A DNA stretch of 64,000 nucleotides from assembly GCA_004431415.1 (NCBI GenBank), contig QPMI01000022.1, positions 372,001 through 436,000 on the forward strand, written 5' to 3'. Of this stretch, positions 13,277 through 62,436 are shown one piece after another; positions within the stretch are counted from its first letter, which is position 1; the number at the start of each line of letters is the position of its first letter. The position numbers and the translations under genes were made by a program. Source of the DNA: Cyanophora paradoxa CCMP329. Its lineage: Eukaryota > Plantae > Glaucophyta. The notes under the pieces were generated by a model, which was given only the letters and a program-made list of their open reading frames with translations, was not told the origin of the DNA and ran no database searches.

Positions 13277-13356
13277 TAGCCTGGCTGTCAGGGCCCTTGG
13301 TGTGCACCCCCCCCAGGAGCATTTGCTTCAATTCCCGGAGGGATTGTTGTATATGG
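13277..13356 (+). repeat. Left terminal inverted repeat
   Basis: TAGCCTGGCTGTCAGGGCCCTTGGTGTGCA-C8...TTCAATTCCCGGAGGGATTGTTGTATATGG aligns with the reverse complement of 32317-32401. Confidence 0.62.
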
Positions 13357-13867
13357 TCATGGTGCAAGGCAGGGGGCGGCGAGCGGGGCGCTCCTTGGTG
13401 GAACAAATACGTAGGCACATGCACCGGGCATGGCAGCGGCCAGGCAGGCAGTCCCTGGCAGCCGATCCTGGCATAGTGAACAGGAGCCGGGGCGCGGCGC
13501 CGGCGAGCTAGTAGCGTAAGAGGTCTTTGTATCATACATACAAGTGGTTCGTGTGGCCGGGCGGGCTGCGCGCGCGCTGCCCTGGACGCGCGCCCGTCGA
13601 GCGTGCGGGCGCCAGCTCGGGCACTCAGATGCATGCCGGCAGCGCTCAAACCTACCACGGATGCGATGCTAGGTCGCTGAAGATGCTGCGCGCGCCCGAC
13701 GCGGCCCAGCACTCGGTTTTGACGACAGCGTCAAGGGAGGGGGGTGCAGTGAATTTTTCGACCGCGGGAACAGCCGGCGGCAGACCGCCGGAGAGCCGCC
13801 CCAGCCGGCCAAAACAGCGATAGCCTAGTGCACGGAGCTGCGGGCGCTCATTGCGGTTCGCCTCGCA

Positions 13868-16061
13868 ATGAGCGGCTTCGAGATTTACATCGACCCGGAG
13901 ATTCTGGAGGAGTATGTGGCTCAGAAGAGAAAGGCGAGGGAGATCGTGGCTCTGCTGCACGAGGAGCACCAAATCCAGATTTCGATGCGCGCCCTGCGCT
14001 ACAAGCTCAGCGACCTCGACCTCTCGACGGACTACTCTCTCTCAAAGGAGGCAGTTTACGATGTCGTAGAAGAAGCGGCGACTTTGTGCGGCGACGGATA
14101 CGGCTACGACGCGATCCGCGGGGCGCTCAGGGCCGCGGGCATCACTGTGGCGAAGTCTAGGATTCAGCACGCCCTCGCGGAGCTGGATCCGACGGGACGC
14201 AACGTTCGCCTGGGCGAGTTCGCGAAAAAGCGCAGGTCCATCCACCGCTCGACCTTCTACGGGTCCGCGCCGCCACGCCGCCCGTGCCGCACCGCCGCGC
14301 CGCGCTGACGCACGCCTTGTGCGCAGGAAGTTCTTCGGCTGGAGTGTCGGTTTCGACCAGAACGAGAAGGCGGTGCCGTACACGAACGTCTACATCTTCG
14401 CGGCCGTGGAGAATACGTCCACATTCATCCTGGACTTGCATTGCGGGCTTGCTCGCTCCACTATACAAGGCTACAAACTGTACAAGTGCGCGCGAGGGCA
14501 CACGCCTCGCAGCTGCGTGCTCCGTGACCCCAGAGCTGCAGGTCGGTCGTGGAGGAGTTCGGGGTCTTCGACACGGTCTCCTCGGACTGCGGCGCAGAGA
14601 ACCGGCTGACCTGGACAGCCCACGTGTGCTCCCTCCCACTCCTCTTGCTCACCTGCGCCGCACCTGACCCCCGGGCGCGGCCACCGAAAGGCGCTCGTGC
14701 TGGAGGAAACCGAGCGGCTGATCGACGAGGAAATTGCGAAGGGCAACATCACGGACCCCACCACCGGCCTTCCCTGGCGGAGGCTCAACTTCGAAGATCC
14801 CAACGACCTGCGCGACGCCGTCATGGTGGGCCCATCCTACCGGAACCCGAAGGTCGAGAAGAATTGGAGGTGATGGACACGCCCTCTCCCCACGCATTCC
14901 TTCTGTATTTGCTCTCTCCGGTAACACTCCATGGGCAGGTGGGTGAATGTCAAGGTCACGAAGCCCATCGTGGATGCGGCTGTGATGCTGGAGATGCTCG
15001 AGTGGTACAACAGGTGCCCTTCGTGCGACCCGCCAGTCGATGACAGCTACAGACCATGATGGCCATCCCTATGTACATGTTGGAAGGCTACAATCAGTTA
15101 CTTCTGGCTGAGACTTGCCAAATTAAGAGCTCTTAATTTGCATGCGTGCATTCGAATTCACTTGGCATGCATGCTTATTATTCTCCGCTTGCATTCAGAC
15201 TCGACCCTCAACAGCTGTTTGCCATGGCGAAGGCGACCATGTACGTGATGGAGTACGGCCTCGCCATCGCGAAGAACAGCTGGAACCACCACGTGAATTC
15301 AGGCTCCAAGGAGACGGGGGGCAGAACGGCAGGCCAGACTGGTGGTATGCACTGCGGCACCTGTTCCCTGTTCTTTAAATTGTGCTGGTCCCAGCTCACT
15401 GGGCCCGGGTGCAGGCGCGAGAACATGAACTACATGCGGCCTCTGATGTTCAACCTGCCAGAGTGGACGGAAATGAAGGATATCCACAACCAGAGGGCGG
15501 CTCTGTCAACGGCTCGGTCCTTGACAGCCGCATGAAGGACCCGTTGAGCCCGACTTCGTCGTCTTTGACGAACCCCGCACGACTCTCCGGTGTGAAATTA
15601 CCTGCCCCGGGCACTCCCTTCATTGTTTATCAAGCTTCCTCACGCTCAGGATGCTGCGGGACGAGATGTTCAAGGAATGCAATGAGGACTTGAAGGAGAT
15701 CTGGAAGCATGTGGTCAACTTCGGGCGGGAGTATGATGAGGAAGCTCCGGGGGTACGTGGACGCATTGCGGAGCAGTACTCCAGCAACCCCCTTGGAGGG
15801 CTCCCCCGGCTCTTCTTGTTCATGCTGCAGCTGAACGAGCAGCTTTCCGACCTGCACCTGTACGATGTGTCCATCCCCGGCTGGATGCAGTGGGTGCACG
15901 ACGCACCCGCCAACAACGACGCGCCCCGTGCCCGGTCAATGCAGGGGATGGGCTTCTTCCCACCGGACGAGTACCTGCTGGAGCCCCAGGAAATGCGTGC
16001 AGCTTTCTTTTATTATGTGCACAATTTCGATCCCCTCGTGCGCGGCCCCCGGGCCCGCTAG
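13868..16061 (+). CDS. IS3EU-like DDE transposase/integrase with N-terminal Clr5/HTH-like domains; multi-exon
   Basis: HTH-like N-terminus (ISMRALRYKLSDLDL; GYDAIRGALRAAGITVAKSRIQHALAELDP). The integrase core has WSVGF-D-QNEK, VSS-D-CGAEN, GPSYRNPKV-E-KNWR and WNHH, matching the family pattern WHxDGxxK / RxDxGxEN / SxxNxxIERxWR / WNxH. Possible frameshift near 15500-15560. Confidence 0.85.
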
Positions 16062-16159
16062 GCTAGCCCTCTAGCGGCCCTCTAGCCCTAGCTTGATATA
16101 GCTAGCTCTGGCTATGTCTAATGAAACGCTCTCTCCTGCTCGCACTGGGCGGGAAAGGA

Positions 16160-19155
16160 AATGGAAACATCCACATACAGCAAAGTGACATTGACCTAGG
16201 CCTAGAGCTCGGGATGAACATCCAGAGACAGAACTACCTTCAAGCTTCACCTCGGCTGCAGCCAGCCTAGATGCGAGCAGCTCCCCGACAATACCTGCAG
16301 CTCGAGTGAGTTTCCAAATGCCTGCAGGTGCGGGGACGAGCGCAAGGACTCGATGGGCGCACGGGCTCAAGAAGAGGGGAAGCGCGGCCGATGCAGACGC
16401 GCTTGCGTGCGCGCTTTCGCCACGCAGCCGTGGCCCTTCCGCGACTCCGGCGATCGTAATGCTCCCGCCAGGCTTGCCGGAGCGCGCGCCGAAGCCGCAG
16501 CGGGACGCCACCTGCGGTATTGACGCCATCGTAAATGGCCCGTGCGGCGCCGCGGGCGGTGCACGGGCGCTGCGCCGGCGATGGGATCGCAGTCTGTGTG
16601 TGTACCGTAGGCGGATGCGAGCCTCGGGCGTGCCTATTCGCAGCCCGCCGCGAGGAACAGGTGTGTTGCCAACTGGCACGCCCGAGCGAGGCGGCGCGGG
16701 GCGGGGCTGGGCGGCGCCCAGGTCACTGGCGGCTCGCTCGCGCCGAGCTCGCTGCAGGAGCGCTCGGCGGGCTCCGGGATGGCTGAGTCCGGTGTACCCG
16801 GAGAATTGGGGTACACATCGAAAATGCGCACGCCGCGTCTGGCCTCGCCGGCGCAGCTCAACACACCCAAAAGGCGCGCCGTGAAAGCTATATAGCCGAG
16901 CGTAACCACTGGATCAAGTACCGTCACGCGGAAGCGATTGCTGACTGGGCAAACGGCGGCTTTGAAGGACCGAAGCCGCAGCCGCCGGCGCCACCGAGGA
17001 CCTCATAGCTAAGACAGCTGTTGAGGACAGCACCTGCAGACAGCTGTTCGCTGCGCAGCCGCCGACCAAGACGTCGACGCCAGCCAGCAGCCAGCGCCAG
17101 CCACCGCCATCAGCTGCAGCCCGCCTCAGAAAGCGACCGTTGACGTGCACGATTGCGCTCCGCACTCCCCCCTCGCCCCGTCGCCGGAGCCGATCGCCCT
17201 TAGTGCAACGGTCACTGCGACGTGCGTTGCCCGCGATCCGTCGCCATCCGCGCTGATGATACCTGTACAGGAATGAATCAGAGCTAACTGAAAACAAGGC
17301 TGAGGAGGCGGCGCCACCCGCGCCGGCTGCGTCGCCGGATGTGCCTGGCCGTGTGCCCGTGTTCCTGTTCTTCGTTCCAGTCGAGTGCGTGCTCTGCTGC
17401 TGCACAACAGTTGTACCAATCTCTTACAGTCGTGCGGCGCCCCTAGGGTCGATCCTGTGCCGCCCACGCCCGCTCCTGCTGAAGAAGTTCTCTGCCCCCC
17501 ACGGAGGAGGAGTTAGCCGAGATGGCGGCTATGGACTTGTCCGAGGGCGCTATACAGGAGCTGAGGTCTGCAGATGCTGCTGCATAGCAGATGTTTTTGC
17601 TGACAGTCGTGAACGTGCAGAGCACGTGCATCAATTTCGAAGGAGGACAAGGAGGCTGTTGATCTTCTGATCGGGATCAATGCAACCTGCTCAGTCTGTT
17701 TGAGCTCAGTCCAGGATCCTGAGAGAGGGCTCCCTGTGACGGTGGCCGACAGCGAGGGGAAGATCTGTTCCCACAAGTTCCATGAATCCTGCATCATGGA
17801 CCTGCTGAAGCACGGGAGGCCGTCCTGTCCTGAGTGGTACATACTAATCCCGCCCCCCCCCACCCACCCCCTGTGACAGTACCTTTCTGATCTCTTTACA
17901 GTCGCATGGATATCCGCACTGTGGCAAGGCTCAGCGGTGAGAGAGTGAAGACCATCTCCGAGGCTGAGTTCAAGGAGTGCAACCAGCACTTCCACGATGA
18001 CGTCGGCCTTCAGGCAACGGAGGCTTTAATCATTGCGGAGGCAGTAGATGCGGGCGCAGGTTCTCAGTCTCAAGCACCCCCTCTCCCCCTCCAGACTACC
18101 GCAGGCAGCCTGGACGGCGATGGACTTATCGTTGCCTCGTCTGCGGCGAAAACTTCCCCAACTACCACAGCCACCCTACTTGTGCTGCCACAACAAGGAA
18201 TCCATCTGCCAGCACGAGCCGGGCGGCTGCGGGCGGTCGGAAGAGGCGTGCATCAAGCGAAAGCACGTCAGGAGAGATGCATGAACGCCTACCACCCTGA
18301 ATGTGTGAACTTCGTGGTCGAGAATGGATTCAAAATGATGGAATATCTCTGTGTGTCCTTTGCATTACATTCGCGATTCAAGACCTCGCTAACGTTTTGT
18401 GTAGGCCTCGCCTGCTGCTGCCAGAAATGCCATTTGCCGGATCGGAGGATGATCCCTCTCTGAATGGCGAACTCCTCATCTGCGATGGGAGGGCGTGCGG
18501 CAGGGCGTGGCACGTCGAATGTGCTGGTTTTTCGGATGCCACCATACCCGAGGGCAAGTGGTACTGTGCGTGCCTCTGGATACTGGATGTTCATGCATCG
18601 CATTCCTAACACATGCCTTTTAGGCCTTGAGTGCTCGGAGTCAAGGAGAAGAAGAGGAGGAGGAAGGAGGAGCGGCGGCAAGCGATGCGGCGTGCAAAGG
18701 ATGAGCGGCGGCAAGCAACGCGGCGTGCACAGGAGGAGCAGGAGGAAGAGGAGGAGGAGAGGAGGAGGAAGAGGAGGAGGAGGAGCAGGAGGCGGAAGAG
18801 GAGGAGCAGGAGTCAGAGAACGAAGAGAACGAAGAGCAGCTGAAGCAGAAGGAGGCGTGGGAACAGCGGAAGCGGCTCACAGCAGCGCGCGTCAGCGCCG
18901 CCCCCACTGTCGGCACAAAGAGAGTGCGCGAGGCGAAACAACGCCAGGCGGCGGCCCTCGCGAAGATTGCCCAGCACAGGCAGCGCACTGTAGAACGTGC
19001 CGTAGCGAGCATGAGAAGATAATCGCAGGCTTTGTATGCATCTGTGCGCACAATGTAAATATTTTGATTCAGGGCTCAAGCTTGAGATCCTCGTCATCCG
19101 GGCAGGGTCACAAACTACAAGAGCTAGCTTGCGGATCCGTTCCTCCACTGCCTGA
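16160..19155 (+). CDS. RING-finger and PHD-finger protein with acidic coiled-coil tail (transposon cargo; frameshifted, boundaries approximate)
   Basis: CDGG...CSHKFHESCI...SCPE (RING-like, ~17735-17835); CMNAYHPECV; CQKC...LLICDGRACGRAWHVECAGFSDATIPEGKWYC (canonical PHD, ~18413-18570); E/R-rich tail. Confidence 0.72.
16207..16825 (+). repeat. Internal repeat A, copy 1 (~600 bp; inverted copy at 25525-26188)
   Basis: The same sequence and peptide (PKPQRDATCGIDAIVNGPCG...GWLSPVYPE) are found on the minus strand at 25525-26188. Confidence 0.92.
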
Positions 19156-21082
19156 TCCAGCACTCATTCGCACTTCCATCTGGTTTACTTGTGAGCAGCT
19201 GTGAGCGGAGAGCAGCCTGCACGTTGAGCTGGCTATCGCTACATGTGGGGAACATGAGCGTGTACACAGCAGCCCAGATCCACACACCGCACTGGAGCAA
19301 AGTGCATCAGGAAAGACAATACAGATACTCTAGAAAAGAACTCACATCGACGCAATTAAACTGAACAGCGTGGTCGTAGATGTTCCCCAGCACACTTACT
19401 CTATGGGAGTGGAGCATATCTGCAACCTTACCCAATGTTTTCGTCCAATTCATTGAATCGGCGAAGGTGCAGACAGTCTGACGTCCTTCTTTGCGGAGGT
19501 AGCCGAGAATCCTGTGTGTTGCATCAGACATCGATCTACGGAAGCAGTCTGCACGGCACACCAGTGTCCAACCTCACGCCCTGTGGGTGTCCTGTGATTT
19601 GTGTTGAAGCAAAAGAGCACATGCTTGCCCTGTCGAGCTAAGTCGACCAGCAGATGAATGTAGGCCGTGTTGTCGAGGAGGCCGAAGGGGCACGGGCTCT
19701 CCACATGCCACAGCGGGTTTCTCCATTGACTGCTGACAAGCATGAGAAGATAGATGCCTGAGGCACAGACACACACGGAAGAAGTCGGTCAAAACCATTG
19801 ATCTGAGACAGAACGAAGAACTGTACGTTTACCTGTCTGCACTTGAGAGGTAGTAAGTGGAATCTTGCCGTCTTCGGGGATCATCGCCAAGTCATCAATG
19901 ACATTCCGCACATACTCTCGTACTGGTTTCTTGGCGTCGCTGATCTTCATCGGCTTCAGTTCCTGACGACCTGGCATGGAACTGTCAGTCAATTGCCATC
20001 AACTGTGCATTCTGCAGCATACCCGGCTTCTGGTCGGAAGCTATGCATTCCTCCCCTTCATCCCATTCATTCCTATCGGTTGTGGCCGGTGTAGGATTTT
20101 CGATCTCGACGTCGACCACAGGAATCGACATGCCCACAGAGCGTAGAGCTGCTGCTCGGGCAGGCCTAATCCTCCGAGAAAGGGGCGAGACGGCGACGGC
20201 AGGGCGGGCGGGGACGGGGAGGTGGAGGCAGGAGGGGTGGCAGGAGGGGCTGGGGGAGGAACGGAAGGAGGCGCGGGGGAGGGGCGAAGGGAGAGGCGGA
20301 GGGAGGGCAAAGGAGAGGCGGGGGAGGGCAAAGGGAGAGGCGGGGAGGAGGTGCGGCAAAGGGAGGAGGAGCGGGGGGGGAAACAACCCCATCTGCCGCG
20401 GCATCTGCCGCGGGGGGGGCTGCAGCGGGAGGGACAGCAACGAGCGCTGCGGCCAGGCGCAGCGGCGGATCCTTCTTGAAGGCGTCGGCAGCGAGCCGGA
20501 CCAGGAAATCTCTCAGCGTCTCGCGTGGTGCGTCCTTGTACACGTGCATGTAAACGGCTTGCACTTGCGCGAGCATTTGCACGCATGTGTGCATATGCGT
20601 GATCACAGGAGGCCCGCATACTCCGTTTTCCCCATAATACACCGATTCCGAGATAGCACACCTGCAGGCAGAGTCAGCAAACACCGCGCACGAGTTACCG
20701 CGGCGGGGCGCACGCGCGGCCAGCGATAGCCCCGATCCAAAGGAGGATCCTGCAGATCTCGCAGACGTGAACGACACGCTTCGAGCTATCTGTGTAAAGC
20801 TGGGTGTTGCGCTTGACTTGCTGCCCCGTCAAGGGATCGTACACCTGCTTGCTGAACGTGTCCTTCACGCCGAGGATCATGCATGTCTGCTCCAGGTGCC
20901 GCACGCCGACGGGCAATCCTGTATCGGGATCCAGATCGTAAAAGCCGTTGGCTAGCCCCCAGCTCGGTGGCCGCCGGCATCCGGGGCAGCACGATTCCTG
21001 CGCGCGGCCTTTCCGCGCCCGGCTCGCTTGTCTGTGCGTCTGTACGCGGCCTCCGCTTCCGTTCCTCGGCCGGCGCTGACAT
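19070..21082 (-). CDS. Ulp1/SENP-like (C48) cysteine protease (transposon cargo; frameshifted)
   Basis: Catalytic motifs occur in order: FNTN...GHW (~19565), FADSM (~19460), and QFNCVD|CGVWI spliced across a GT-AG intron (~19345/19291). Confidence 0.72.
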
Positions 21083-21332
21083 GTCTGCCGTGCCGAAGGC
21101 CGCCTATGTGTATGACGGCTGCCCAAATGGGCGTCAGCGCGGGAATTCCGAAGATTGCGCGGGGCGTGCGGCGTGATTTAGCACAAGAGGGCTAGCACCG
21201 CGGTAGGAGCTGAGCAGAAGCCTTGCCGTTGAGCTCAGAGCAGGAGAACGGGACGGCGGGTGCTCCGGCAGGGGTACCGGTACCGAAGCCCCAGCGCTGG
21301 GATCTCGAGCTGGTGGGCAGTTCCGAAGCAAA

Positions 21333-22038
21333 ATGTATAGGCAGCTGCGTCGTCTCGCTTCGGCCGGAGGTACTGAACTGGTATGTGCGCTGAGTGCGCT
21401 GCGCCGCCAGTGGGTCGCCTGTGCGCTAACTGCCAGGCTGCACTCGCTGCCGGCAGGTAACGGCAAGGACGCGTGGTGTGAGCGTGCGCTCGTTCGACTG
21501 CCGCTCGTGCCGCCAGTATCGCTGCGAGTAAAGTTTGCCGCAGACCCGCGGCGAGGCCGTCTGCCGCGCACCACCGCTGCCATCGGCATCGATCGCCGCG
21601 CGGGCTGGCTTCTGCCGAAGCAGTCGGGCATCTGGCGCGCCGGGACCGGCCTCTTCGTGGAGCGGCCGGGCGTGCGCCGTGGTGCAGTTGTTTTCAGACC
21701 AGGTGACCTCATCACCCCGTACCGCGGGACGATCTACACGAAGACTCAAGCGCTGGAGATTTTCGCTCGCGAGCCCTCGCGTCGCCTCTACAGCATCTCG
21801 TTCAAAGGCAAGTACGGGCACACGTACGTCCTCGACGCCACCGACTTTCGGAGGCGAGCCTAGCGCGCTTCGCAAATGACGCGGATAAGCCCGGGACTCA
21901 CCCCGCTTCTCGAACAACGCCTTCTTCCGCGTGGAGAAGGACGGGCAGGTCTGGCTAGTCGCCGACTGCGTCCTCAAGCAGGGGATGGAGATCTTCGTCC
22001 CGTACGGGCAGCTGTACTGGAGCGTGCTGGCTCGCTAG
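21333..22038 (+). CDS. Minimal SET-domain lysine methyltransferase (two frameshifts: pseudogene or assembly errors)
   Basis: SGIWRAGTGLF, GDLITPYRG, YVLDA, then after shifts SLARFAND, NNAFF and GMEIFVPYGQLYW*: the full set of SET motifs. Confidence 0.8.
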
Positions 22039-22303
22039 CTCTCTTCTCGTATCTCACGCGCTATCCTGGCGTTGTAGACCTCCTTTTCTCTCTTTTCCGG
22101 TTCTGTTTCTTCTCCCATCCAAATGAACCCAGTCTCTCTCATGCCAGCAGCTAGCTCTGGGATGGCAGACTGGCCTGCGGCTGCGCACGCGCCAACGCGA
22201 CACCGCATGCACTGTGCGTCGAAGCGGGATGCGATGGCAAAAGAAAGAGCGCGGCTCTTGATGGGATGGGAAGAAATGTGACGCGAGTGAGCGCGCGACG
22301 TGT

Positions 22304-23593
22304 CGCGGCAACCGCGGCATTTTGAGTCTATCCGCGGCAACTCCGCGGCAGTTACGTGAGAATTAATTAACCACGAAATTAAAAAAGGGGGTAGTCCAAA
22401 TGACGCGGCATCTTCGCGGCATTCCGCGCTACTAACAAATTCTGCGGCAATTACCGGTAGATGTCGTTAAATCCGGCAGTTGGCGACAGAACGCGGCATC
22501 CAAGGCGTCGTCGCGCTGCTTTCGCGGCTCTCGCCCGAGAATTAATTAACCACGAAATTAAAAAGTGGGGTAGTGTGATTGACGCGGTGTTTCCGCGGCA
22601 CTCCGCGCTACTAGCGGCAATTACTGCCACACGTCGTCAAATTCGGTAGTTAGCGTCAAAATGCGGCATCCGCGATGGAATCGCGTTTTCTACGCGACGG
22701 TTTCCCAAGAATTAATTAACCACGAAATAAAAAAGGGGGTAGTCCAAATAACGCGGCAACTTCGCGGCAGTTTTCCCTAACCGCGGCATGATTTGACAAT
22801 CGCGGTACATTGCGGTTGTTCGCGGCAAATACGAATCGCGGCGTCAATTCTGGCTTGCCATCTGGCGCGGATCGTGAGCTTCATGATCATGAGGCGCGTT
22901 TTCTCCCGCGTCATGATGCCTGCATGTCCAGAGGTACTCTATAAATATTTTAATCATGTTTAGGAGGAGGCGGGATTGTGCATGCAGACCACAGACACAT
23001 GTGTCGAACAGAAAAGTACAGGATGAACTGTCAGACTGACAATTCATGAATTGCCATAAAGCACTGAAGCTAGGGTGGTCTGTGGAAAAAGCGCACACGT
23101 TCTAAGCATGATTAAAATACTTATATAGTTCCTCTGAACATGCCTGCATCATGATGCGGAGGAAACGCGCGTCATGATCATGAAGCTCATGATCTGCGCC
23201 TCATCGGGACATACGAAGCGACGCCGCGGTTCTGTAGAGCCGCAAAATGCCGACAAACCTCGCGAGAACCGCTAATTGCCGCTAGTAGCGCGGAGTGCCG
23301 CGGAAACACCGCGTCAATCACACTACCCCCACTTTTTAATTTCGTGGTTAATTAATTCTCGGGCGAGAGCCGCGAAAGCAGCGCGACGACGCCTTGGATG
23401 CCGCGTTCTGTCGCCAACTGCCGGATTTAACGACATCTACCGGTAATTGCCGCAGAATTTGTTAGTAGCGCGGAATGCCGCGAAGATGCCGCGTCATTTG
23501 GACTACCCCCTTTTTTAATTTCGTGGTTAATTAATTCTCACGTAACTGCCGCGGAGTTGCCGCGGATAGACTCAAAATGCCGCGGTTGCCGCG
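22304..23593. repeat. 1.3-kb nested palindrome: outer arms 22304-22623/23273-23593, inner arms 22864-22965/23100-23200
   Basis: Outer arms are reverse complements, with one indel noticed in ~320 bp. Five copies of (G/A)AGAATTAATTAACCACGAAAT(T/A)AAAAA..GGGGTAGT occur at 22358, 22537, 22707 and reversed at ~23323 and ~23502. Inner arms are ~100 bp and imperfect. Confidence 0.95.
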
Positions 23594-23673
23594 GATGACG
23601 CGGATTGTCGCGAACGTTCAAAGAACGCGTTCTGCCGCGGAATGCCGCTCGGGGGTTCACACTACCCAAGACG

Positions 23674-24804
23674 ATGGCGGGAGCGTCGGTGGACAGCAGC
23701 ACGCAAGTGGAGCGGCCTTGCTGCAACGAGAAAGTCATGACGATCGTCGAGCACAGTCTGAATGTGCGTTGCCTTTGTGGTCCGCGCGACGGTAGCGGCG
23801 CCACCAGCTATCTGATGAACTTCGGAATTCCCACAGCACCTCAACGAGAGGCTTGCCGATAAGCAAGCGGAGGTGGACACTTTGCACCGAAGGTGGCCGA
23901 GATGGAGGCCAGGGAGAGAGCGAACGAATTCGTCGGACCGCAGATTCTGGGACTGACAAAGGTGCGCGTGCGATGCGCATGCGGCGCTCAGCATGCCTCA
24001 GCTCTGCGGCAGGACGTATGCGACAGGTACCGCGAGGTGAAAGAGGAGCTGAGCAAGTCTCAGAAGGCGCTGGCCGATGCGAACGCCCGAATCCGTGAGG
24101 TCGATCTGGGACTGACAAAGGTGCGCGTGCGATGCGCATGCGGCCGCTCAGCATGCCTCAGCTCTGCGGCAGGACGTATGCGACAGTACCGCGAGGTGAA
24201 AGAGGAGCTGAGCAAGTCTGAGAAGGCGCGGGCCGATGCGAACGCCCGAATCCGTGAGGTCGAGGAGGCGAGCTCGATCTTCGCAGTACGATGCTCGGAG
24301 CTCGCAGTGCGATGCCACGTGCCTTAGTTCTGCTCGCAGATCCTTGGCAAGAGGATGCGCGACGAATTGGAGTGCGGGTGCGCACGAAGGACAGTGCGTG
24401 GTCATTCCATTTGCTGCGCCTAGACGTGCCGCGCCTTTGCTGATAAATGTGCCCGATGCAGATCTCAAGGACATCATGGCCTACAGAGCGGGTTGCGACT
24501 ACATCGGTGTGATGCTGGATGCACGCCCTTAATGAGATCTTTGTAGGGCTTCAACTCCGAGAGATCCCCTCAGGCTTCATTGTTTTTCTGTTCAGATGCT
24601 TTTAAGTCCATATTGATTGCCTTTCTTGCCCGCGGCCCTGTGGCTTGTGCAGCGTGTCAAAGGAGCAAAAGTAGCTGCTTAAAGAATAATTGTACACAAA
24701 TGAAAGGGCACAAGCAAGGAACGTGCAAAGTGAAGGATGCGAAGGGCACATGCACACGAGTCACCTACTCCATCATTGACCTGTACATATCTATAGGTCT
24801 GTAG
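23674..24804 (+). CDS. Hypothetical cargo protein X: coiled-coil plus Cys-rich C-terminus, with duplicated exon
   Basis: MAGASVDSST...; an exon/intron unit is duplicated in tandem (~23947-24106 / ~24106-24263); DLKDIMAYRAGCDYIGVMLD; CAACQRSKSSC...HKQGTC. Confidence 0.5.
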
Positions 24805-24849
24805 ATTTTCTCGGGCTGGTCGGGACCGAGGGTCCAGCCGTAGGCAAAT

Positions 24850-25500
24850 GCGAAGTACCTGTGAGCAAGCAGCGCCTCAGCGGAACAGCGGAACGCATTG
24901 CAGCGGCGCGGACCCGTTGTATCGGGGGCGCGCGGGCGTAGTTGACGAAGCGATCGCGGAGCTCCTTCCGGCCCTGCACAGCTGGGTTGTAGGCACGGCA
25001 TGTGTGACCTGCACACCGCGGCAAGGCACGCGTGAGCCAGATTGGATAGACTGGGGATATACTAGTGCAGCATGGCAGATCGCACTCTATCTTCATGGCG
25101 CGGCGCTGGCGACGCGCTGAATCCATGACTCCGACGCTTTGATTCCTCGCTCGCGGAGGATCGCGCGGATCCCGCGGACCTCGCGCCACACCGGATCGAA
25201 CACCGCGAGGGCCTTCCGAATCCTCGACTTCGACGCTGTGATGCTTGGGCGCGGAGGGCCGTGCGGATCATGCCGCCGCCGAAAAGGGGCCATTTAAGTT
25301 AACAACTCCAGCACGGCGACACAAAGGACATTGAAAGAGAGAGCGTAGTTCGTTGAGAGGCCAAGCTCGCGGAGCCTGGAGCGCAGAGCGCGCTGTTGAG
25401 GTTGATGCCGTGCTGCTCGCTAGCAGAGTCAGTATCTCAGCGGCCGTCTTCCTCTGGTCCACGTAGCCGCGCAGAGTCTCCTCCTCGATGCTGCTTGGCT
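24850..25500 (-). pseudogene. Degenerate paralogue of the transposase N-terminal HTH region
   Basis: IEEETLRGYVDQRKTAAEILTLL, MIRTALRAQ-SITASKSRIRKALAVFDP and IRAILRERGIKASESWIQR align to transposase IDPEILEEYVAQKRKAREIVALL and AIRGALRAAGITVAKSRIQHALAELDP. Frameshifted; no DDE core seen. Confidence 0.72.
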
Positions 25501-25524
25501 GGGCCGGGCTCGCGCCACCGCGGC

Positions 25525-26188
25525 CATTTCGCTGCGTACCCAACACCTCCGGGTACACCGGACTCAGCCATCCCGGAGCCCGCGAGCGCTCCTGCAGCGA
25601 GCTCGGCGCGAGCGAGCCGCCAGTGACCTGGCGCCGCCCAGCCCATCCGCGCCGCCTCGCTCGGGCGTGCCAGTTGGCAACACCACCTGTTCCTCGCGGC
25701 GGGCTGCGAATAGGCACGCCCGAGGCTCGCATCCGCCTACGGTACGCACACAGACTGCGATCCCATCGCCGGCGCAGCGCCCGTGCACCGCCCGCGGCGC
25801 CGCACGGGCCATTTACGATGGCGTCAATACCGCAGGTGGCGTCCCGCTGCGGCTTCGGCACGCCCTCCGGCAAGCCTGACGGGAGCATTACGATCACCGG
25901 AGTCGCGGAAGGGCCCACGGCTGCGTGGCGAAAGCGCGCACCGTGGCACGCAAGCGCGTCTGCATCGGCCGCGCTTCCCCCTCTTCTTGAGCCCCGTGCG
26001 CCCCATCGAGTCCTTGCGCTCGTCCCCGCAGTTGCAGCTAGGCATATGGACACTCACGCGAGCTGCAGCTAGGCATATGGCTATAGCTAGGCAGTCTCTG
26101 GTCAAGGTAGTTCTTTCTCTGGAGCTGCTCGCATCTCGGCTAGCTGCAGTCTCTGGTCAAGGTAGTTCTTTCTCTGGATGTTCACGAG
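25525..26188 (-). repeat. Internal repeat A, copy 2 (inverted)
   Basis: Reverse complement matches 16207-16825 with scattered substitutions and indels. Confidence 0.92.
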
Positions 26189-26294
26189 TACAGAGTACAG
26201 AGATGATTGCACACCCTCAACCCCGGACGCGTGTTACGAAAGGACAAGAAAGCATTGCACTGAAGAAACATGCTAGGGTTTAGCATCTGGATTG

Positions 26295-29000
26295 TTAGTG
26301 TCTAAGACCCGCTGTTCTTGCTTTTTTGACTATGGCGAGGCCACCATTGCCGTTGCTTTCGACTATTGCTGACCACACCTGTATTCCTTCCTTGTTGAAG
26401 GCTTTTTTCTCTTTCCACATCCTGGTCGACATGTCGAGCTTGAGTGGAATCGTGTTGCGCCCGTTCTCCAGAACCCGCTTCAAATGACTGCATGCCTCTG
26501 CTTCTCCTCCAACTTGCACACGCCTGCTGGAATCTGGAAATGAACGTCCACAACGTTCTTCCTTCCGGCCTGGTCTACAACCCGAATTTCAGGCAGCGGG
26601 ATCTCATCGGTCTCGCTGCGATTTCGATCATTCACGTGTAAAAGAACACACAATTGAAGGAAGGGCTACACGCACGTGATTCGTCTTTTCTTCCTTCCTG
26701 TGCTCTTCTCCTTGGGGCCCTTGCTGCTGCCCCCGCCTTCGATCGCTTCGATTCTGAAGAAAGTTAGGATACAGACGGGAGTCTTTCGGTTCACACGTGC
26801 CATCATCGGCCTCGACGCCGTCAGGAGCCACATCCTCGTCCTCGTCCTCGTCCTCCTCTTCCCCCCCCCTCCTCCTCCTTCTGAAGATCCACAGGGGGGG
26901 TGGAGGTATAGCAGCAGGCGGGGCAGGAGCAGGGCAGGAGCGGGAAGGGCCCCGCCCTGCTCCAGCCAACGCTTTGTCCGCCATGGCATTGAGAAGGAGG
27001 GCCCGCTCCTCTGGAGTGCGGCGACGAGCCTCCTCTTCCTCCTCCTCCTCCTCATCTGCTGACCCGTGAGCTGCAGCCGGACCTGACGGAATTTAGTACG
27101 CGCAAGCACAAACGTGCCCTGGCTCGTCCGATGCATTCTCCTGCTCTCCAGCCCGGCAATTGCCTTCTGTGAGCCGTGATCAGGATGCGGGCAGGAGAGT
27201 GAAGGGAAGGACACAAACCACGCTGTCGATGTTGTGGGAGGTTTTGAGATTCTCCATAAAGAGAGCACGCAATTTAGTCTCGGATTTGAACTGTTGATTC
27301 ACCAGGAATACGATGAACGGTTTAGCTTCGGCCAGAGAAATCGGCTGTTTCTCAACCACGTGCTTGCTCATGAGACTCTCCATATCGTTCATCTTATCGT
27401 CAGGAAACACAACGTCCCCGGCTTCCCGCTTGCACATCTCGGCACACGAAAGCCTGCAGATACGAGTCAGCGGAGCGCAGACGGGGTTCACCATCAGAAT
27501 GCTCACAGATCTGCGGCGAGGGACAAGGAAGCCTTCGTCCTCTGCTGGCACATTTCGTGGCTTTCTCGGCGACGAACTTCGTCGCGCTCCCCAGCAAGAG
27601 CTTGGTTTTTTGGTTGCCAGGAAGAGTTTCCGCTGGCCCACGGTCTTCTGGATCCACTGCAAGTTGAGTTGGTCTGTGTGCTGCTCGATTTTGTTCAGCA
27701 GTGAACATGCCGCGCGCGCCTGTCTGCGCGGGCCGAACCTGCTGCGGGGTTCGCTTTGGCTTGGACGTGGCGCCGATGCCCCGCCCGCGCTGCCTGTGGT
27801 GCAGCTGCTCCGCCGACTTCGCCTGCTCCGCGAGCAGCTTCGGCACATCGCAGGGTTGGTGCTGATGAAGTAGTATAGATTTCCCTGCCGGATGTGCTTG
27901 TCGAATATCTGCGCGCATTCAGAAGCAGGCGAGCATCGACGGCGGCGAACTGCCGACCTGCTGGTTGGGCACCCAGTGGCCAGCGCCGCAGAGCACCACG
28001 TAGAGTTTGAGCAAGGGCCGTGCGAATCGGGAACGTCGAAGATCGCCGCCACTTCGCGATGAAAGCATCTAGTTTCGCCGGTGCCAGTGACACGGTGTTC
28101 TCGCCGTGCTTCGATATATCCTTCACGGCTGTTACGATGAGGTCGGGAGCTGCTCACCCGGCTGCTCAAACTGCGCGGCCGCGACAGCCGCCACGGGCGG
28201 CGCAGGAGCACCGGCGGCCGCAGCCGGGAGCATGGTAACGACGCGTACCCCTGGCTTGACGACGCCGTCAAACCCATGGACTCGCGCAACCCGGCACCTG
28301 CCGCGGCCGGCGTCTTTGAGTCCGGGCCGCTTCGCGGCAAGGAGTTCACTTTCCGGCGGCCTGCAGCAGCCCCCGAGCCGGCGTCCGCTGCGGGCGCCGC
28401 TCCTCCGAACGCGAGCTCATCGCCGACCTCCAGCGGCAGCTGGAGGCGCTCACGGTGGAGGTGCGCACGATAAAGACGGAAGTCGAGGAAGGTACGCGGC
28501 CGCCGTCGCCCGTGGCGCGTCCTCGTTTTGAACCGCCATCCGCGCCGAGCTAGGTCAGCGCCCTGCGCCCCCGCAGCCCGCCGCGCGCAAGCTCGGCGCA
28601 ACGCATCTCCTCCTCCACCGAACGAGAAGTACACCGGAGTCCGTCGACGGGCAAGATCCACAAGGTCTCCAAGGTCTCGGGCCAGAACCCGACGTGCCCG
28701 GCCCTCCGCGTGCGTACAGCTCGCGTGCCCCGGCTTTGAGGCACTCAGTAGCTAAAGGCGGTGCGCGCAGATGAAGGGAAGATCCTCTGGCCCGAGTTCA
28801 GCTCGGAGGAGGCGCTCCGGGCCTCGGACCCAAGTACAACAAGGAGGGCGCTCGCTGCCGCAACTGCTGGCGCTAGGCGCTAGCCGTGCGGGGTCGCTCC
28901 CTCCGCGGCGCTTCCTGTTCCGCGTGAAGCTCTGTGAACGTGTCGCTGAGTCGTGCTCTGAACACGAGATGTTGTTGTCAACTTGGAAGGGAACCTTGAA
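26295..29000 (-). CDS. Hypothetical cargo protein Y (multi-exon, frameshifted, unknown function; boundaries approximate)
   Basis: Protein-like segments ECAQIFDKHIRQGNLYYFISTNP, LLNKIEQHTDQLNLQWIQK, MESLMSKHVVEKQPISLAEAKPFIVFLV and HLKRVLENGRNTIPLKLDM...LRH*. Confidence 0.45.
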
Positions 29001-29282
29001 GGGATGCATGCATGGCCAGGCACGCAGAGAGGAGAGCGCAGGCACACATACGAAATCAATCCAGATTGCACACAAATACATACACAGCGATAAACAGCCG
29101 ACATAGATACATACACAGCGATAGACAGCACATTACTATAGATAGCAAACACATGGATACATATATAGAGTTGCGAGCCCAGCGGGAGAGCTCGGAATGG
29201 ACATGAAGGAAAATAAAATCCTACCAAGAGCACAGGCTATCTGCAGCTACTGCTGTGCAGAGCTAGCAGCTACTTCAGAGCA

Positions 29283-32200
29283 ACTACTGCTGCCCCTTCT
29301 CCTGCTGCGCCTTCTCCTTTGCGGCCTCCAGGTCGAGCCCGCCGCTGGCGAGGACGGCGTAGTTCATCGTGCGGGCACGCTTGCGCGAACCCTCCGCCGC
29401 CGGACGGGAGCTCGAGGCGGCCGGGGTGTCGAGAGGGAGGGGATCGGAAGAGGAGGAGCCGAGCTTGGGTCAGGGAGGGGCGGGGCCGCAGGGAGGGCCT
29501 GGGCTGCTGCCTCCTTCTCCGTCTTGGACCGCCGGCCCCGCTTCGGAGGCGCCGGCGTTTTCTCCACGTGTTCCACGTCCTCCACGGGCCCGTCCTCCTC
29601 CTCGCAGTGGCAGAAGTCCTTGGACCCCTGCCGGCACACGCCGAAGCAGGGCCCTGGTAGCACTTGTAGCCGAGCCAGTCGCAGACGAAGACGTGCTTGC
29701 TGGTCCTGCTGAACTTCTCCACAATTTCGTCGTGCTCCGGGTTGCCGATGCGCTTGTAGCCGCAAACACTGCAAGGATGGACGAGGAAAGCAGACTTCCC
29801 TGCTCCAGAAGCATGAGACAGGGGACGGCGAGGGCAGAAACGGGCGTACCGTTGCGGGCATCCTTCATCGCGTCCTCGAGCTTGTCCTCCGGGACGACGT
29901 ACGGCCGCAGCTCCAGGTTCACGAGCTCCCGATGGGCATCCTCGATGCGGAGCTGCTGCAAGAGTCAGGCAGTCCCTGCAAGGGTTGGGTTGGAGCCTGA
30001 GCTGTCACAGACCGAGAGCGGCGAGTCATGCCGTCCCGCAGCTTGAGGACGTCGGTGGGGCACATCTTGTGGAACATGGCGGCGTGGCACATTGCAATGC
30101 CGTTGACATACGACTGCAGGAGGGCGCCGCCCGACGTGGATTGACCAGCCGCTCCGGGTCCTTGCGGTTGAGGGAGTATTTCTGCTCAGCACCAGAGTGA
30201 GATTCGGTGGACAGAGGGGAACTAAGCAGGAAGGGCAGTCTGAGAACCTTTTCGGGCGTAGTCATCGTCCGCAGGATGGCATGCTGCGACCCCGCTCGAA
30301 GTACATCGATGTGAGCACCACACCGATGTAGTTGCAGTTCGCCTCGTAGGCCATCACCTCGGTGAGCTCTGCACGGGGCACATGCATCAGAGAAGGGCGC
30401 GGTGCATCGGGTGCCAGGAGAGCACAACGCACTGGACACTGGGAAGTTGTCAGGGGTGATTTCATTCACGGCGTCCTGGAAGTTGTTGGGCCGCCGGCCC
30501 GCGCCCTTCGGCGGCTTGTTGGGGACGAACATCTTGTACACTTCCAGGGCTCCTCAGCGTTCAGCTTCTTCGTCATGAACGCTGAGAATGCATCTGCAGA
30601 TAGAAGAGCAGGTGCTAAGGTTAGACTGAAGAGGGACCTTTACAGAAAGGAGCACAAGCCAAGAAAGGAGAAAGGAGCACAGACCAGCGAGCTGCGTGTA
30701 GGGGTGCGGATCAAGCATGCCTTCGATCTCGATTGTGATGGTCGTTGGATCCTTCCCGGACGTCCCGAGCTTGAAGACGACGTTGTACCGGGGCTCCTGG
30801 AAGTCGGCCACACCACGGCTCCGGCGGGCGGCCAATTCAGCCTTCTTGTTTACGAACTGCTCGAAAGCAAGCGGTCAGTGTGCTCTAGAGGCCAGAGAAG
30901 AGGAATCAAAGGCATGCACGCACGTCCCTGACAATCTTGGCGGTGGTTCGCCCATGAAGATGATGTGCTGGCCAGTCGGTTTGGCCAAGTGCTTGTTCAC
31001 GAAGAGGTTCCAGTCCTGCATGCTGACAGGGTCCTGCGGGTGTTCAAAAAGCATGCAGTGAGCACAGAGAAAGAAGGAAAAAAGGAAGAGGTGGGATGGG
31101 GAAGAAGAGGACGCAATGCATGCTGCTAGGCGGCTAACCTGCATGACCCACATCTTCTCGATGTTGTCCAGGGGACGACATGCATCTTCTTCGCGGGTTG
31201 CTCGGATCCACGATCTCGGTGATGACAGCCGTGGCAACAGTCAGCGTGTTCCCCACTCCGGCTGGTTCGCGCTGCGGTTCGTGATGTTCCGCGCCATCTC
31301 GAAGCCCTTCGGGTCGAAGTAGTTCACGAAAATCTCCTCGCTCAGGATGTGTACTGCGACGAAGACGCGCGATCAGGTTCGAAAGGAAGACCCGCGCAAT
31401 CACGGAAGCAACGAGCCGAGGATCGCGACGCACTCGGTGCGGAACTCTTCCCGAGGATCGCGAGCATGTCGTGGAGAGGCTTCCAGGCCGCGTCCGCGGC
31501 CGGGCGTAGGTCGCGAATGAGAAGGGCGTAGGCTTGACTGCCTCGATTCCCTTTCCGCTCTTCACCGCGGCACCCGCCGCAGCCATGACCTTCTCTTTCT
31601 GAGTGACCGCGGCCGCGGCGGCCTTGGCCTTCGCATTCGTCGTCACCTGGGCGCGAGGGCCACCTTGCCGAGGGGTCGAACCCCTCCGGCTGCGCGTATA
31701 GCGTGAGGAGGATCGCATGGCGACGCGAGGATGCGGGCGCACGATCGTGGGCCCGCCCGAGCCTGTGCGCGTGGCGCCAAAATTTGAATGTCAGTTGGGC
31801 GCCAAAATTTGAATCGACATGGCGGCGATTGCGAGCGCACCGCGCCCCGAGCTCGCGACCGCGTCCGCAAGGCCCTGACTGGAGCGGCCGCTAAACCGGA
31901 CCCCGAAGGTGGCCGCCCGTTGGGCGGGCTCGGCCGGCGCGGCGACCTCGGCTGGTCGTCTGCGCGCCGAGCGGTTAGCGCGGGCGGCGGTTAGCGTGAG
32001 CACGCGCACCCATTGCCGTGTAGTAGACGCCCTGCTTGCCCGTCTTCCAGCCCGAGGTGGAGCACAGGAGGCTGATGTCTTCGAGCTCCTCCGACGTGCC
32101 GTCGTGGCGCTTCTCGAGCACGAATTCCATGTTCTCGGCGTCCAGATTCTGAAACACAGTCGTCTTGAGCAGCCGCAGGACAACGTCAACGGGCGGCGTT

Positions 32201-32320
32201 GAGCATGTCCGGCTTGAAATGCACAGGCGGCGCATCCGGGCTGCCCTTCCTGTGGATCACGACACGTTCGATTTCTCCCGCGGGCACGGAGCCCGCCGCG
32301 GGTGCCGCCGGTGCCGCCAT
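29283..32320 (-). CDS. Hypothetical cargo protein Z with C-terminal CW-like zinc finger (multi-exon, frameshifted)
   Basis: ATG 32320 lies inside the right TIR. Exons include VMAYEANCNYIGVVLTSMYFE and CSVCGYKRIG...VFVCDWLGYKCYQGPC (CxxC..R...FxC...C spacing like zf-CW), followed by KRGRRSK. Confidence 0.5.
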
Positions 32321-32401
32321 GTTCAAAAATTTGCCGCCGAGTTTGAATTGACGTATACCGGGGGGGGGGGGTTGCACACGTTAGTCCCTGATACCTGGCT
32401 A
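32317..32401 (-). repeat. Right terminal inverted repeat
   Basis: Reverse complement reads TAGCCAGGTATCAGGGACTAACGTGTGCAA-poly(C)...TTCAAACTCGGCGGCAAATTTTTGAACATGG. The inner ATG (32320) starts the last cargo gene. Confidence 0.62.
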
Positions 32402-57600: not shown

Positions 57601-60600
57601 CCATCGCAGCGTACAAGAAAGTGTGCAAGATCCACAAGAAGCTGCCCCCGGGCGGCGTGCTGGTGTTCCTCACGGGCCGCAAGGAGGTCGACGACCTGTG
57701 CCGCAAGCTCCGCCGCGAGTTCGACCCGCTCCGCCTCCTCAAGAAGCGGTGCGAGTGCTTGCGGCTCTCTCTAATGCTAGGAAGCTATCCGATCTGAGGC
57801 CGGCGCCGCGCAGGGAGAAGGCCCAAGCGCGCAAGAAGCGCGCGGCGGAGGCGGCGGCAGCAGCGGCGGCGGCGGTCGAGGGCGACGGGCCTCGCGCGCG
57901 GGCGTCGTCGTCGGCGGCGTCGGCGTCGGCCGCGCAGCAGGCGCGGGACCAGGGCCCCGCGAACCCGTGGGCCGGGCTCGACGAGGACACCGACGACGAA
58001 GAAGACGGCGCGAGCGTTGAAGCAGAGGCCGCGGAGGAGGAAGAGGCTGAGCAGGAAGAGGAGGCTGAGGAAGCGCTGGAGGGGGCCCTGGAGGCGGCGC
58101 GGCGGGCCCGCGTCGGTTTCGGCAACGAGGAGGAGGACGCGGAGGAGGACGAGGGCGAGGCCGGGGGCGAAGAAGAAGAGGAGGAGGAGGAGGAGGAGGG
58201 CGAGGAGGCAGGGGGGGAGGAGGACAGCGACGCCGAGTCCGACTCGGACGCCGAGGTCCGCTGGGCTTCGCTGGGCCTCGCCCCTGCAGCTGCTTAAGCA
58301 TTAAACATCAAAGATGCCGCGCTCACCTGTCCTCGTTCGTCCCTTCAGGTCGGGCCAGTGGACGTGTCTCCCCTCTACTCGATGCTCAGCACGCGGGAGC
58401 AGCTGCGCGCCCTGCGGCCCCCACGCGAGGGGTACCGCAAGTGAGCCCGCCAAGCCAAGCTTGCTCCGCCCCGACTAGCCCACCTTACTACCCCGCGCAG
58501 GATCGTCGTCGCGACGAACGTGGCCGAGACCAGCCTCACCATCCCCGTGCGCCCCTCCCCTCCCCGCCCGCGCTGTTTACAGCGCAGCGCTCTCGCCCTT
58601 GCTCCTCCCCCCCCTCGCTCACCGCCTCCTCCACCTCCGCAGGGCATCAAGTACGTGGTGGACAGCGGCAAGGCGAAAGAGCGCGTCTACGACGGCTACG
58701 GCGGCTGCGGCCTCAGCTCCTTTGTCGTCGACTGGATATCCAAGGCCTCCGCCGACCAGGTCCGTCCGCGTTAGTTAGCTGGTTATATACATTTAGCTAG
58801 TTAGCTATTATTAAGTGAGGTTTCTCGTCCCGTTTTCGCTTTCGTTGTTCCTTGAGAACCGCGCCTTTAGTGTCTTGCCAGCGATCCTCGTGAAATGAGC
58901 CGGCAGGATGGTCCGGCAGCGGAGACCAACGGGGGCCTAGCCCTTTGGACGCGCTCTTGCCTTGCCAGCCCCGTGCCTCTCGTGGCAATTGGGGGAGGCA
59001 AACGAGCGCGGCGATATTCTATTCTGCCCCTCCCCTCCCACTCTTCTAGCATTCTTTTAATCCAGTCTTTGTCTCTACAATCTTCTTCTACCCGCCTTCC
59101 ATCTTTCCTGATCTGATCTGATCTGACCCTCCTTCTCCTCGACGCGCAGCGGGCGGGGCGGGCGGGGCGCGTCGGGCCGGGCCACTGCTACCGCCTCTAC
59201 TCCTCCGCCGTCTTCACCGGCGAGGCGCGGCTCCCCCCCCCCCCCCTGCTCGGGCTCCTCCCTCGACCCTTCCATACCCCCCCCCCCCCCCCCGCCCCTC
59301 CCCGGCCCTTCTCCCCGCGGGCCCTCCCTGACTTGAGCTTCCCGCCTCCCGCCTGCGCAGTTCCCGAAGTTCTCGGAGCCCGAGATCCTGCGCACGCCCA
59401 TCGAGGGCGTCGTCCTCCAGATGAAGTTCATGGGGTACGCATTCTATTCGAATTAATTCACGAACTCTTTCTTGAAGCATTCTCAAGCGCTTAAGCATCT
59501 CTAGCGTCTCTTTGGAGATCCGCCACCCAAACTCTCTTCTAACTTCGACTCCTCGAGCCGCTCTGACTCTGCGGGTCCCCCTCCGCGCAGGATCCAGCGG
59601 GTGACGAGCTTCCCGTACCCGACGCCGCCCGAGCGGCCGGCGACGCGCGCCGCCGTCCGCCTCCTCACCGACCTGGGCGCCCTCCAGCCCCTGCCCCGCG
59701 GGTGCGCCCCGATCGAAGACCGCGGTAGAGCCTAGAAACCAAGCGGGCGAACCCGGCCTTCTCCATTCCCGTCCTGCCTCGCTCGAACTCACGACGGCGG
59801 GGCGGGGCAGGCCCGGGGCGGCTGAGCGCGACGTGGGGGACGCGGAGGAGATCACGGCCCTCGGCCGCGCCATGGCCGGTCAGCCCATCCATCCATCCGA
59901 TCCATCCGATTCGGTCTGATTCGATCTGATTTGATCGCAGCCTTCCCCGTGTCGCCGCGCTTCGCAAAGATGCTGCTGCTGGGCTGGCGCGGCGGCTGCA
60001 TGCCCTACGCCATCGCCCTCGTCGCGCTCTTGTCCGTCCAGGTACGCAAGATAGATAGATAGGTAGACACTGGTATTGGAGACGGCGTCGTTCTTACTCC
60101 TTTCTCGCTCGCTCCAGGACCTCTTCCGGCGCGAGGCGGTCGCCGCCGAGGACGAGGCGGAGGGCGGAGGCGAGGGCGGCGAGGGCGACGGCGCGGCCGC
60201 CGCCGCCGCCGCCAAGGAGAAGGCCAAGGTCCGATCGTACTATTCTTCTAGACTGTTTGTTCTACTGCACGCGCTGAGACGGCGGGCAGCGGGAGCGGGC
60301 CGCGATGTACCGCTGGCTCCACGCCGAGAGCGACCTCCTGGGAGCCCTCCGCGCCCTCGGCGCCATGGAGCACGCGGCGGAGGGGATGGACGAGGCCGGC
60401 GTCGAGGCCTGGTGCCTCGAGAACGGCCTCCTACCAAAGGCGAGCGCGCGGATTCGATCCAAATTTGATCTCTAGATTTGATCTGATAGGCCCTCTGCAG
60501 AGCGTGAAGGAGGCGCAGGACCTGCGGGCGCAGCTCACGCGCATCGTGGGCTCGCTGTACCCCTCGCGGGCGGCCGGACTGGGCGCCCGCATGCCGGGGC

Positions 60601-61545: not shown

Positions 61546-61675
61546 AGGTGAGACCGGTTAGTTTAGTTTAGATTCATTTCGGCGATTCGCATCCCTTCTC
61601 GTTTCCCGTTTTCTACCTAGTATAGTCCCGGCTTCTAGGCCTCTAGTCCCGTTTTCGCTTTCGTTGTTTCTTCGG

Positions 61676-62230: not shown

Positions 62231-62436
62231 TCCTATTTCAATAGATTAAAGCGTAGCTATCTCGTGATTCTTTAAGACCTTCTTTTGAGCTCGCGATTGA
62301 CTCGCCCTGTCCGCAGGAGTGCGTAGACACTCCCTCCAGGACCGGCAAGCGCACACAAGCGACGCGGAGGATCCGAATCCCAAGGTTCGCTCATCTTTCT
62401 CGCCGCTCAAATGATGCTCTAAAGAAAGAAAGAAAA

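Follow-up and report, generated by a model that had tools for sequence, protein, structure and literature searches.

What does a mirrored array of short repeats do inside a large DNA transposon, and how did its two arms come to match almost letter for letter? These questions arise from a 1290-bp block (22304-23593) in the window, that is, the whole 64,000-nucleotide stretch of DNA analysed here, from the freshwater alga Cyanophora paradoxa. The block lies within an element of 19,108 bp (13286-32393) with ends TGTCAGGG...CCCTGATA, imperfect TIRs (59 matches over 91 aligned columns) and a 6-bp TSD, CCTGGC, at 13280-13285 and 32394-32399; contigs carrying other flanks stop at 13286 and 32394. The element is multi-copy in C. 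paradoxa, with six gene-model accessions for the transposase, five for a SET-like gene and four for the right-end gene, four of the five SET-like accessions lying within 2-4 numbers of a transposase model. Its spliced transposase gene (13868-16061, plus strand) encodes a Clr5-like HTH, with Clr5 itself below cut-off, and an rva_4 integrase core scoring 27.2-28.7 bits (cut-off 26) in all three models scanned; we take rva_4 to be a marker of the IS3EU/GingerRoot lineage. By its TSD length, TIRs and rva_4 transposase, and in part by its ends, the element appears to be an IS3EU/GingerRoot-like transposon. Three representative transposase models, all labelled Cyanophora paradoxa, were 100% identical to a 133-aa query, and no relatives were found outside this species, the metagenomes giving 141 pattern matches of which none was confirmed. 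In run X13 one contig connects 13390 with 26910, and in gene model P0001 the transposase start (14290) is linked to sequence of the right end (32158); both joins possibly represent internally deleted copies. Outside the element, a 196-bp repeat with a core 98-100% identical occurs as a single copy (58823-59020) and as a tandem run of three (61642-62262).

The block is placed between two cargo genes and fills most of the gap that separates them. To its left, a SET-like gene (21330-22039, plus strand; start approximate) ends about 265 bp away; its Pfam SET match (E=2e-4, 22.1 bits) falls just below the 22.4 cut-off and its frame is shifted, probably by assembly indels. To its right begins an expressed, spliced gene (23674-24533, plus strand; end approximate) whose function is unassigned and whose product shows Cys motifs and a coiled coil; its coding region contains a tandem duplication of about 160 bp (23946-24263), which a contig of double depth and another spanning the junction confirm. 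Further on lies a stand-alone paralogue of the transposase HTH region (24790-25527, minus strand), spliced according to the introns in an RNA contig, without detected catalytic core, and reminiscent, as we see it, of the OrfA of bacterial IS3. It is identical to the transposase HTH region at 52 of 107 positions (49%, E=2e-23), with Clr5 and HTH_21 below cut-off, and its product may be a regulator of the element and is a candidate binder of the array. A Pfam scan of the ORFs also detected RING and PHD domains among the cargo. In one run that we call RNA-type, a term used here although none of the listed runs holding the stretch is on record as RNA, 28 of 30 bins were covered, with GT..AG joints. 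Compared with the short-read contigs, the window is short of single bases in many G/C runs between 13000 and 32900 (112 indel rows), and frameshifts within this interval are therefore probably assembly errors.

Several further features of the element deserve mention. A minus-strand cargo gene at 19070-21080 shows HW, DS and CG motifs that suggest by eye a Ulp1/C48 protease, its exons having no Pfam match. The right-end gene (29270-32320, minus strand), which opposes the transposase and encodes 713-762 aa, ends in an H-x-C-x-x-C motif recalling alpha-kinases by eye; it gave no match in Pfam, PHROG, NCBIfam or PDB, its predicted fold was unusable (pLDDT 34.8), and an Atlas search returned a weak lead (0.76) to viral TBP-like clusters and nothing for the sub-region. 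The gene at 23674 and the right-end gene are partial paralogues: the 3' portion of the former (24429-24516) and an exon of the latter (30314-30402) show 76% inverted similarity. Repeat A (taken to be 16292-16823 and 25527-26071) is an inverted repeat of about 530 bp; each copy ends at the start codon of a frame pointing inward (16824 plus, 25527 minus), and the pair looks like a duplicated promoter. The initial annotation held repeat A to be clearly diverged, a description too strong for 19 substitutions in 528 columns (96% identity) and an identical run of 113 bp. Repeat A was also considered as the TIRs of a nested element and rejected, since it has no convincing TSD and contigs run through its outer edge.

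A mirrored sequence in a window with many indel errors could in principle be an artefact, namely a fold-back chimera of a long read. We compared the window with assembled contigs from seven sequencing runs, the stretch or part of it being present in 20 of 24 runs; the 2024 runs may belong to one campaign and one run may be the window's own source. In each of the three DNA runs, six contigs matched at 80% likeness or more, and all are accounted for: a flank reaching 22333, one arm contig of 322 bp, a core contig of 710 bp (22594-23302) and a flank starting at 23564, plus two pieces of the 160-bp tandem duplication further right. Run X13 gave the same core contig and the same break. Such a graph is that of a true inverted repeat, and its exact recovery from short-read runs of different years refutes the artefact, whose probability we regard as negligible. 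The arm contig had 2.0, 2.3 and 2.5 times the depth of the core in the three DNA runs, ratios that we do not read as copy numbers. At 80% likeness or more, no other contigs or loose ends were found inside 22304-23593 in any of these three runs, though 30-base overlaps aligned elsewhere. The depth of the core equals that of its flanks (86.7 against 83.5 and 100.7; 403.6 against 404.5 and 418.1; 551.9 against 505.9 and 555.1) and no empty-site contig was seen in the three runs, so that the block is probably present in most or all copies carrying the flanking genes. As these copies look recent, its presence in all of them has by itself no weight as a sign of selection.

The initial annotation described the locus as a near-perfect palindrome of 1.3 kb, a view that has to be narrowed. 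Near-perfect arms make up only about half of the block: the left arm (22304-22623, plus) comprises the end of unit 0, unit 1 and the head of unit 2 of a repeat array, the right arm (23273-23593, minus) measures 322 bp in short-read contigs, and between them lies an asymmetric core of 649 bp. In self-comparison the arms agree in 320 of 321 columns, which confirms the one indel initially noticed between arms of about 320 bp; it falls within a G run. Many G/C runs of the window are missing bases that the short-read contigs have, so this indel is probably a homopolymer error, and the arms are likely identical, with the reservation that contigs merge small differences (repeat A appeared collapsed in run X13). 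The core itself is mirrored at 184 of 252 columns (73%), rising to 107 of 130 (82%) in its inner part, and carries an extra unit on the left, where the tail of unit 2, box 3 and the head of unit 3 (22624-22832, plus) have no right-hand partner. Two axes can be distinguished, the centre of the outer arms at 22948.5 and an older mirror axis at about 23032. The older inner inverted repeat consists of a left half (22833-22968, plus), which contains TCATGATCATGA and, at 22940, a TATA-like hexamer that faces inward, and a right half (23097-23232, minus), with a TATA-like hexamer at 23127 on the minus strand. On the right side only, a degenerate outermost unit (23594-23668, minus) extends the array to 5 bp before the ATG at 23674; it is identical to the head of unit 2 at 48 of 64 positions (0 of 500 shuffles) and its alignment to the left flank gave no match.

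Around the older axis, the loop (22969-23096) contains three short perfect palindromes (22994, 23029 and 23040), a number reached in none of 1000 shuffles (mean 0.05) but by 14 of 499 bins of the same size across the window, so that such a count is common here. In all, 202 perfect palindromes with arms of at least 6 bp lie in the window, most densely at 41-50 kb. At the centre of the loop, TGTCAG-A-CTGACA resembles the left end of the element; the resemblance extends over 6 bp only and was taken as chance, and comparison of the array with the TIRs of the element gave no significant match. The middle domain has one stop-to-stop frame of 85 codons, without Pfam match.

Both arms are arrays of units of about 175 bp, each combining a CGCGGC-rich body with a 36-bp AT box. 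A 20-bp box containing TTAATTAA is present in five exact copies, at 22360, 22539 and 22709 on the plus strand and at 23339 and 23518 on the minus strand, with spacings of 179, 170 and 179 bp, which confirms the five AT-rich motifs spaced 170-180 bp apart that had been noticed initially. The conserved AT box 1 (TTAATTAA, an A tract and a G tract) lies at 22360-22395 (plus) and the other copies at 22539-22574 and 22709-22743 (plus) and at 23322-23358 and 23502-23537 (minus). None of 100 shuffles contained a match to the 20-bp box even with three mismatches allowed, and the box likewise had no match in viral or metagenome contigs. Box and body differ sharply in conservation: comparison of the three left units gives 33 of 36 identical columns for the box and 63 of 150 for the remainder, and an identical run of 20 columns was reached in 11 of 100,000 permutations (p about 1e-4). 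The motif GCGGCA shows a strict polarity, occurring 15 times on the plus strand and never on the minus in the left half, and 12 times on the minus and never on the plus in the right half, always facing inward, with recurrent steps of 11 and about 20 bp. Its density reaches 19.4 per kb in the block against 0.45-1.8 elsewhere, about tenfold over the rest of the element, and the CpG observed/expected ratio is 1.57 in the block against 0.97-1.05 in the remainder of the element.

How the arms came to match can be read from the innermost right unit (23165-23330, minus), which is a chimera of two left units. Its head matches left unit 2 at 57 of 57 positions, against 39 of 57 for unit 3, while its tail is homologous to left unit 3 (77 of 102; 0 of 500 shuffles) and agrees with unit 2 only at shuffle level (295 of 500). 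At least one out-of-register exchange between the halves is therefore likely, and by this comparison the near-perfect arms are a recent tract superimposed, out of register, on an older mirror of 73%. A single conversion or template switch suffices to explain the arm data. The proposal that the arms are actively homogenised holds as far as a recent exchange is concerned, given the fresh tract and the chimeric unit; an ongoing activity need not be invoked, as one event accounts for what is seen. The substitution spectra gave no clear CpG-decay signal. In Galileo, the TIRs of a single copy carry unequal numbers of tandem repeats and conversion has been proposed, according to the accessible text (PMC3573991). 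Besides the arms, the element contains other very recent duplications, and repeat A and the 160-bp tandem duplication show local duplication to be a general trait of it.

Such a propensity lends some credit to the idea that the block is a neutral by-product of a duplication-prone element, a mirror without present function, since the same element bears the 530-bp inverted repeat, the 160-bp tandem duplication and the 76% inverted paralogous segment, and one event explains the identical arms. Mere duplication does not, however, readily account for the conservation of the box against its decaying surroundings, for the strict polarity and phasing of the motifs or for a position upstream of an expressed gene, and we consider it unlikely.

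A foldback origin deserves more attention. The block could be the relic of a non-autonomous foldback transposon of the FB, Tetris or Galileo kind that inserted in an ancestor of the large element, lost its outer ends and has since been passively carried, its boxes being old transposase sites. Inverted arms with internal tandem repeats and unequal unit numbers, an inner non-repetitive domain and a non-coding middle are all traits of such elements in the accessible parts of the literature (PMC4079207, PMC3573991), and the motif polarity is similar to that of subterminal arrays. Nevertheless, the arms share no outer terminus, the outermost right unit having no left counterpart, and scanning 62x102 pairs of boundaries yielded no credible TSD, the best candidates being two 7-mers made of the CGCG motif, in agreement with the initial observation that no TSD flanks the structure. 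Nor was any other copy at 80% likeness or more found in the three DNA runs, with the proviso that contigs show presence and not absence, so that the block, as had been anticipated, is not dispersed as an independent foldback with TSDs but travels as an integral part of the larger element. That the box is nearly invariant while unit bodies have fallen to 55-72% identity counts against a passive relic as well. This origin appears possible but doubtful.

The location of the palindrome near the midpoint of the element had been considered meaningful, and a replication origin, a resolution site for a replicative intermediate or a programmed flip-flop switch had been put forward. The centre of the outer arms does lie 109 bp from the midpoint (22839.5), very close to the 110 bp initially estimated, and the older axis lies 192 bp from it. 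Centrality is however weak evidence, because judged post hoc it arises by chance in 1.1% of cases for the outer axis, 2.0% for the older axis and 6.8% for a block covering the midpoint, and because the recent 160-bp duplication shifted the midpoint 80 bp nearer to the block; no special meaning need be attached to it. Plasmid iterons, baculovirus hr regions and herpes origins have repeated boxes flanking an AT-rich dyad. The repeated boxes around an AT-rich dyad recall that arrangement, the inner mirror folds as single-stranded DNA far better than shuffles do (z = -14.4), and identical inverted arms could in principle invert the core. In contrast with those origins, the boxes here are 170-179 bp apart, no cognate initiator was found, and the array has no viral, phage or metagenome match, the whole block having been compared with phages. 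Moreover, the element possesses the TIRs, TSD and DDE-type transposase of a DNA transposon, and none of its scanned ORFs or gene models matched a Rep, polymerase, helicase or recombinase, several cargo genes being unassigned; the scan took in 150 of the 153 stop-to-stop ORFs of at least 75 aa, that is, all except three located upstream of the transposase. A cruciform, also suggested at first, would have to span the 649-bp spacer or form on the imperfect inner mirror with its loop of about 130 bp, whereas long spacers suppress cruciforms in duplex DNA and lengthening a spacer from 12 to 100 bp lowers recombination between inverted repeats 300-fold, as stated in the available text of PMC10164571. 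An origin, resolution site or switch is thus very unlikely.

A source of dsRNA or siRNA regulating the element, either from a hairpin or from convergent transcripts, is suggested by two TATA-like hexamers that face each other across the loop and by the 322 bp over which a read-through transcript would fold back. Against it, the scan for non-coding RNA gave a single Rfam match at chance level (E=0.85, 12.8 of 138 bits), and no positive RNA evidence was obtained; we regard this role as highly improbable. A tRNA- or Pol III-like reading of the unit, made by eye, was dropped after that Rfam result and with no tRNA predicted by ARAGORN.

With moderate confidence, we favour the view that the block is a putative protein-binding control region (promoter or enhancer) serving the gene at 23674. 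It would go back to an old duplication, in mirror image, of a module of tandem repeats within the 19-kb transposon, and a recent out-of-register recombination between the two halves, by gene conversion or template switching, would have renewed it and produced the 322-bp matching arms. The AT boxes may bind a protein, either the HTH-only protein of the element or a host factor, the array could act as promoter for the gene at 23674, and its CpG-rich sequence might stay open in a host that methylates transposons. Counting in favour of a control region are the integral and non-dispersed nature of the block, the conservation of the boxes, the polarity of the motifs, the exchange between halves and the position beside an expressed gene. 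RNA contigs end at 22136-22144, about 160 bp to the left of the block, and those of two studies start within the outermost right unit, in the bin from 23624 (X15) and at 23633 (X16). The latter start lies 41 bp before the ATG at 23674, which we rate as a weak hint, as contigs cannot show a transcription start. The RNA contigs X15 and X16 have no cover over the block, and absent cover was not counted as evidence.

Some observations count against a control region. In the right half, the motifs and both TATA-like hexamers point away from the gene at 23674, and nothing was seen that the left arm would drive. The conservation of the boxes may stem from an earlier foldback life or from patchy conversion. 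A transposase-type HTH has no evident site here, since the array has no significant match to the TIRs. Finally, TCATGATCATGA recurs in host intergenic DNA, namely at 34552, 43739 and 47079.

A more ambitious extension of the control-region hypothesis would see in the array the docking site of an anti-silencing system complete within the element, in which the HTH-only paralogue would bind the boxes and recruit the SET, PHD and RING proteins, so that a 19-kb IS3EU-like transposon could remain transcribed in a glaucophyte that methylates CpG. By analogy such a system is conceivable, but taken as a whole it is improbable. CpG methylation in C. paradoxa amounts to 32% and includes repeats, as reported in the accessible part of PMC12344493, and published accounts describe methylome data sets of the species; the accessible parts of PMC12695648 and PMC6704402 supplied general background. 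If the array were the site of action of the cargo proteins, it would supply both a defined site in cis and a candidate factor in trans to account for the escape of large cargo transposons from silencing. As a palindrome the block is of modest interest, given that inverted arrays and inter-arm exchange are already known from foldback transposons. Its value lies in the context: the transposon family, IS3EU/GingerRoot-like and unusually large, has recently been amplified in a glaucophyte, and its cargo (SET, PHD, RING and HTH-only transposase paralogue) is transcribed although the host silences repeats by CpG methylation.

The element shares with IS3EU and GingerRoot, as far as the accessible text of the sources goes (PMC10045372, PMC6839031, PMC12730594), a 6-bp TSD, TIRs, an integrase-like transposase, a second large gene of opposite orientation at the far end and cargo genes in between. 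In the same partial sources, GingerRoot elements measure 3.9-12.9 kb against 19.1 kb here, the ends of IS3EU/GingerRoot are TA..TA or occasionally TG..CA, those of this element being mixed with one of each type (TG..TA), and the rust-fungal IS3EU ends TAYGG..CCRTA are not matched. The TET-carrying fungal IS3EU is described there as having an opposite-strand alpha-kinase gene, and our element has an opposite-strand gene of 713-762 aa that gave no domain match. It further differs from both in its about ten genes, most of them under RNA contigs, and in its stand-alone HTH paralogue. The available text of the GingerRoot paper contains neither 'palindrom' nor 'tandem repeat', and the literature covered (most subscription papers and Repbase, which may hold the family, lay outside its scope) yielded no account of this element or of an internal mirrored array in IS3EU/GingerRoot.

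The foldbacks FB, Tetris and Galileo provide the closest architectural likeness, with inverted arms of tandem units of about 200 bp in unequal number, a non-coding middle and exchange between the arms (accessible parts of PMC4079207 and PMC3573991). Unlike them, the block has no TSD (8-10 bp in Tetris, according to the same partial sources), no common outer terminus and no independent copies, and moves only inside the big element. With regard to function, VANDAL elements of Arabidopsis offer a parallel, being large DNA transposons whose non-coding tandem repeats carry many copies of a short motif and whose host methylates transposons, and VANC proteins bind motifs so arrayed in their own transposon (accessible text of PMC5735166). 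Arrays of this type involve a protein of the element that binds the motif and removes methylation, a part for which the HTH-only protein is a candidate here. The superfamily is another one, however, the array here is mirrored and no VANC-like match was found. If the anti-silencing array were true, it would constitute an independent parallel of VANC/VANDAL, arisen in another superfamily and another lineage.
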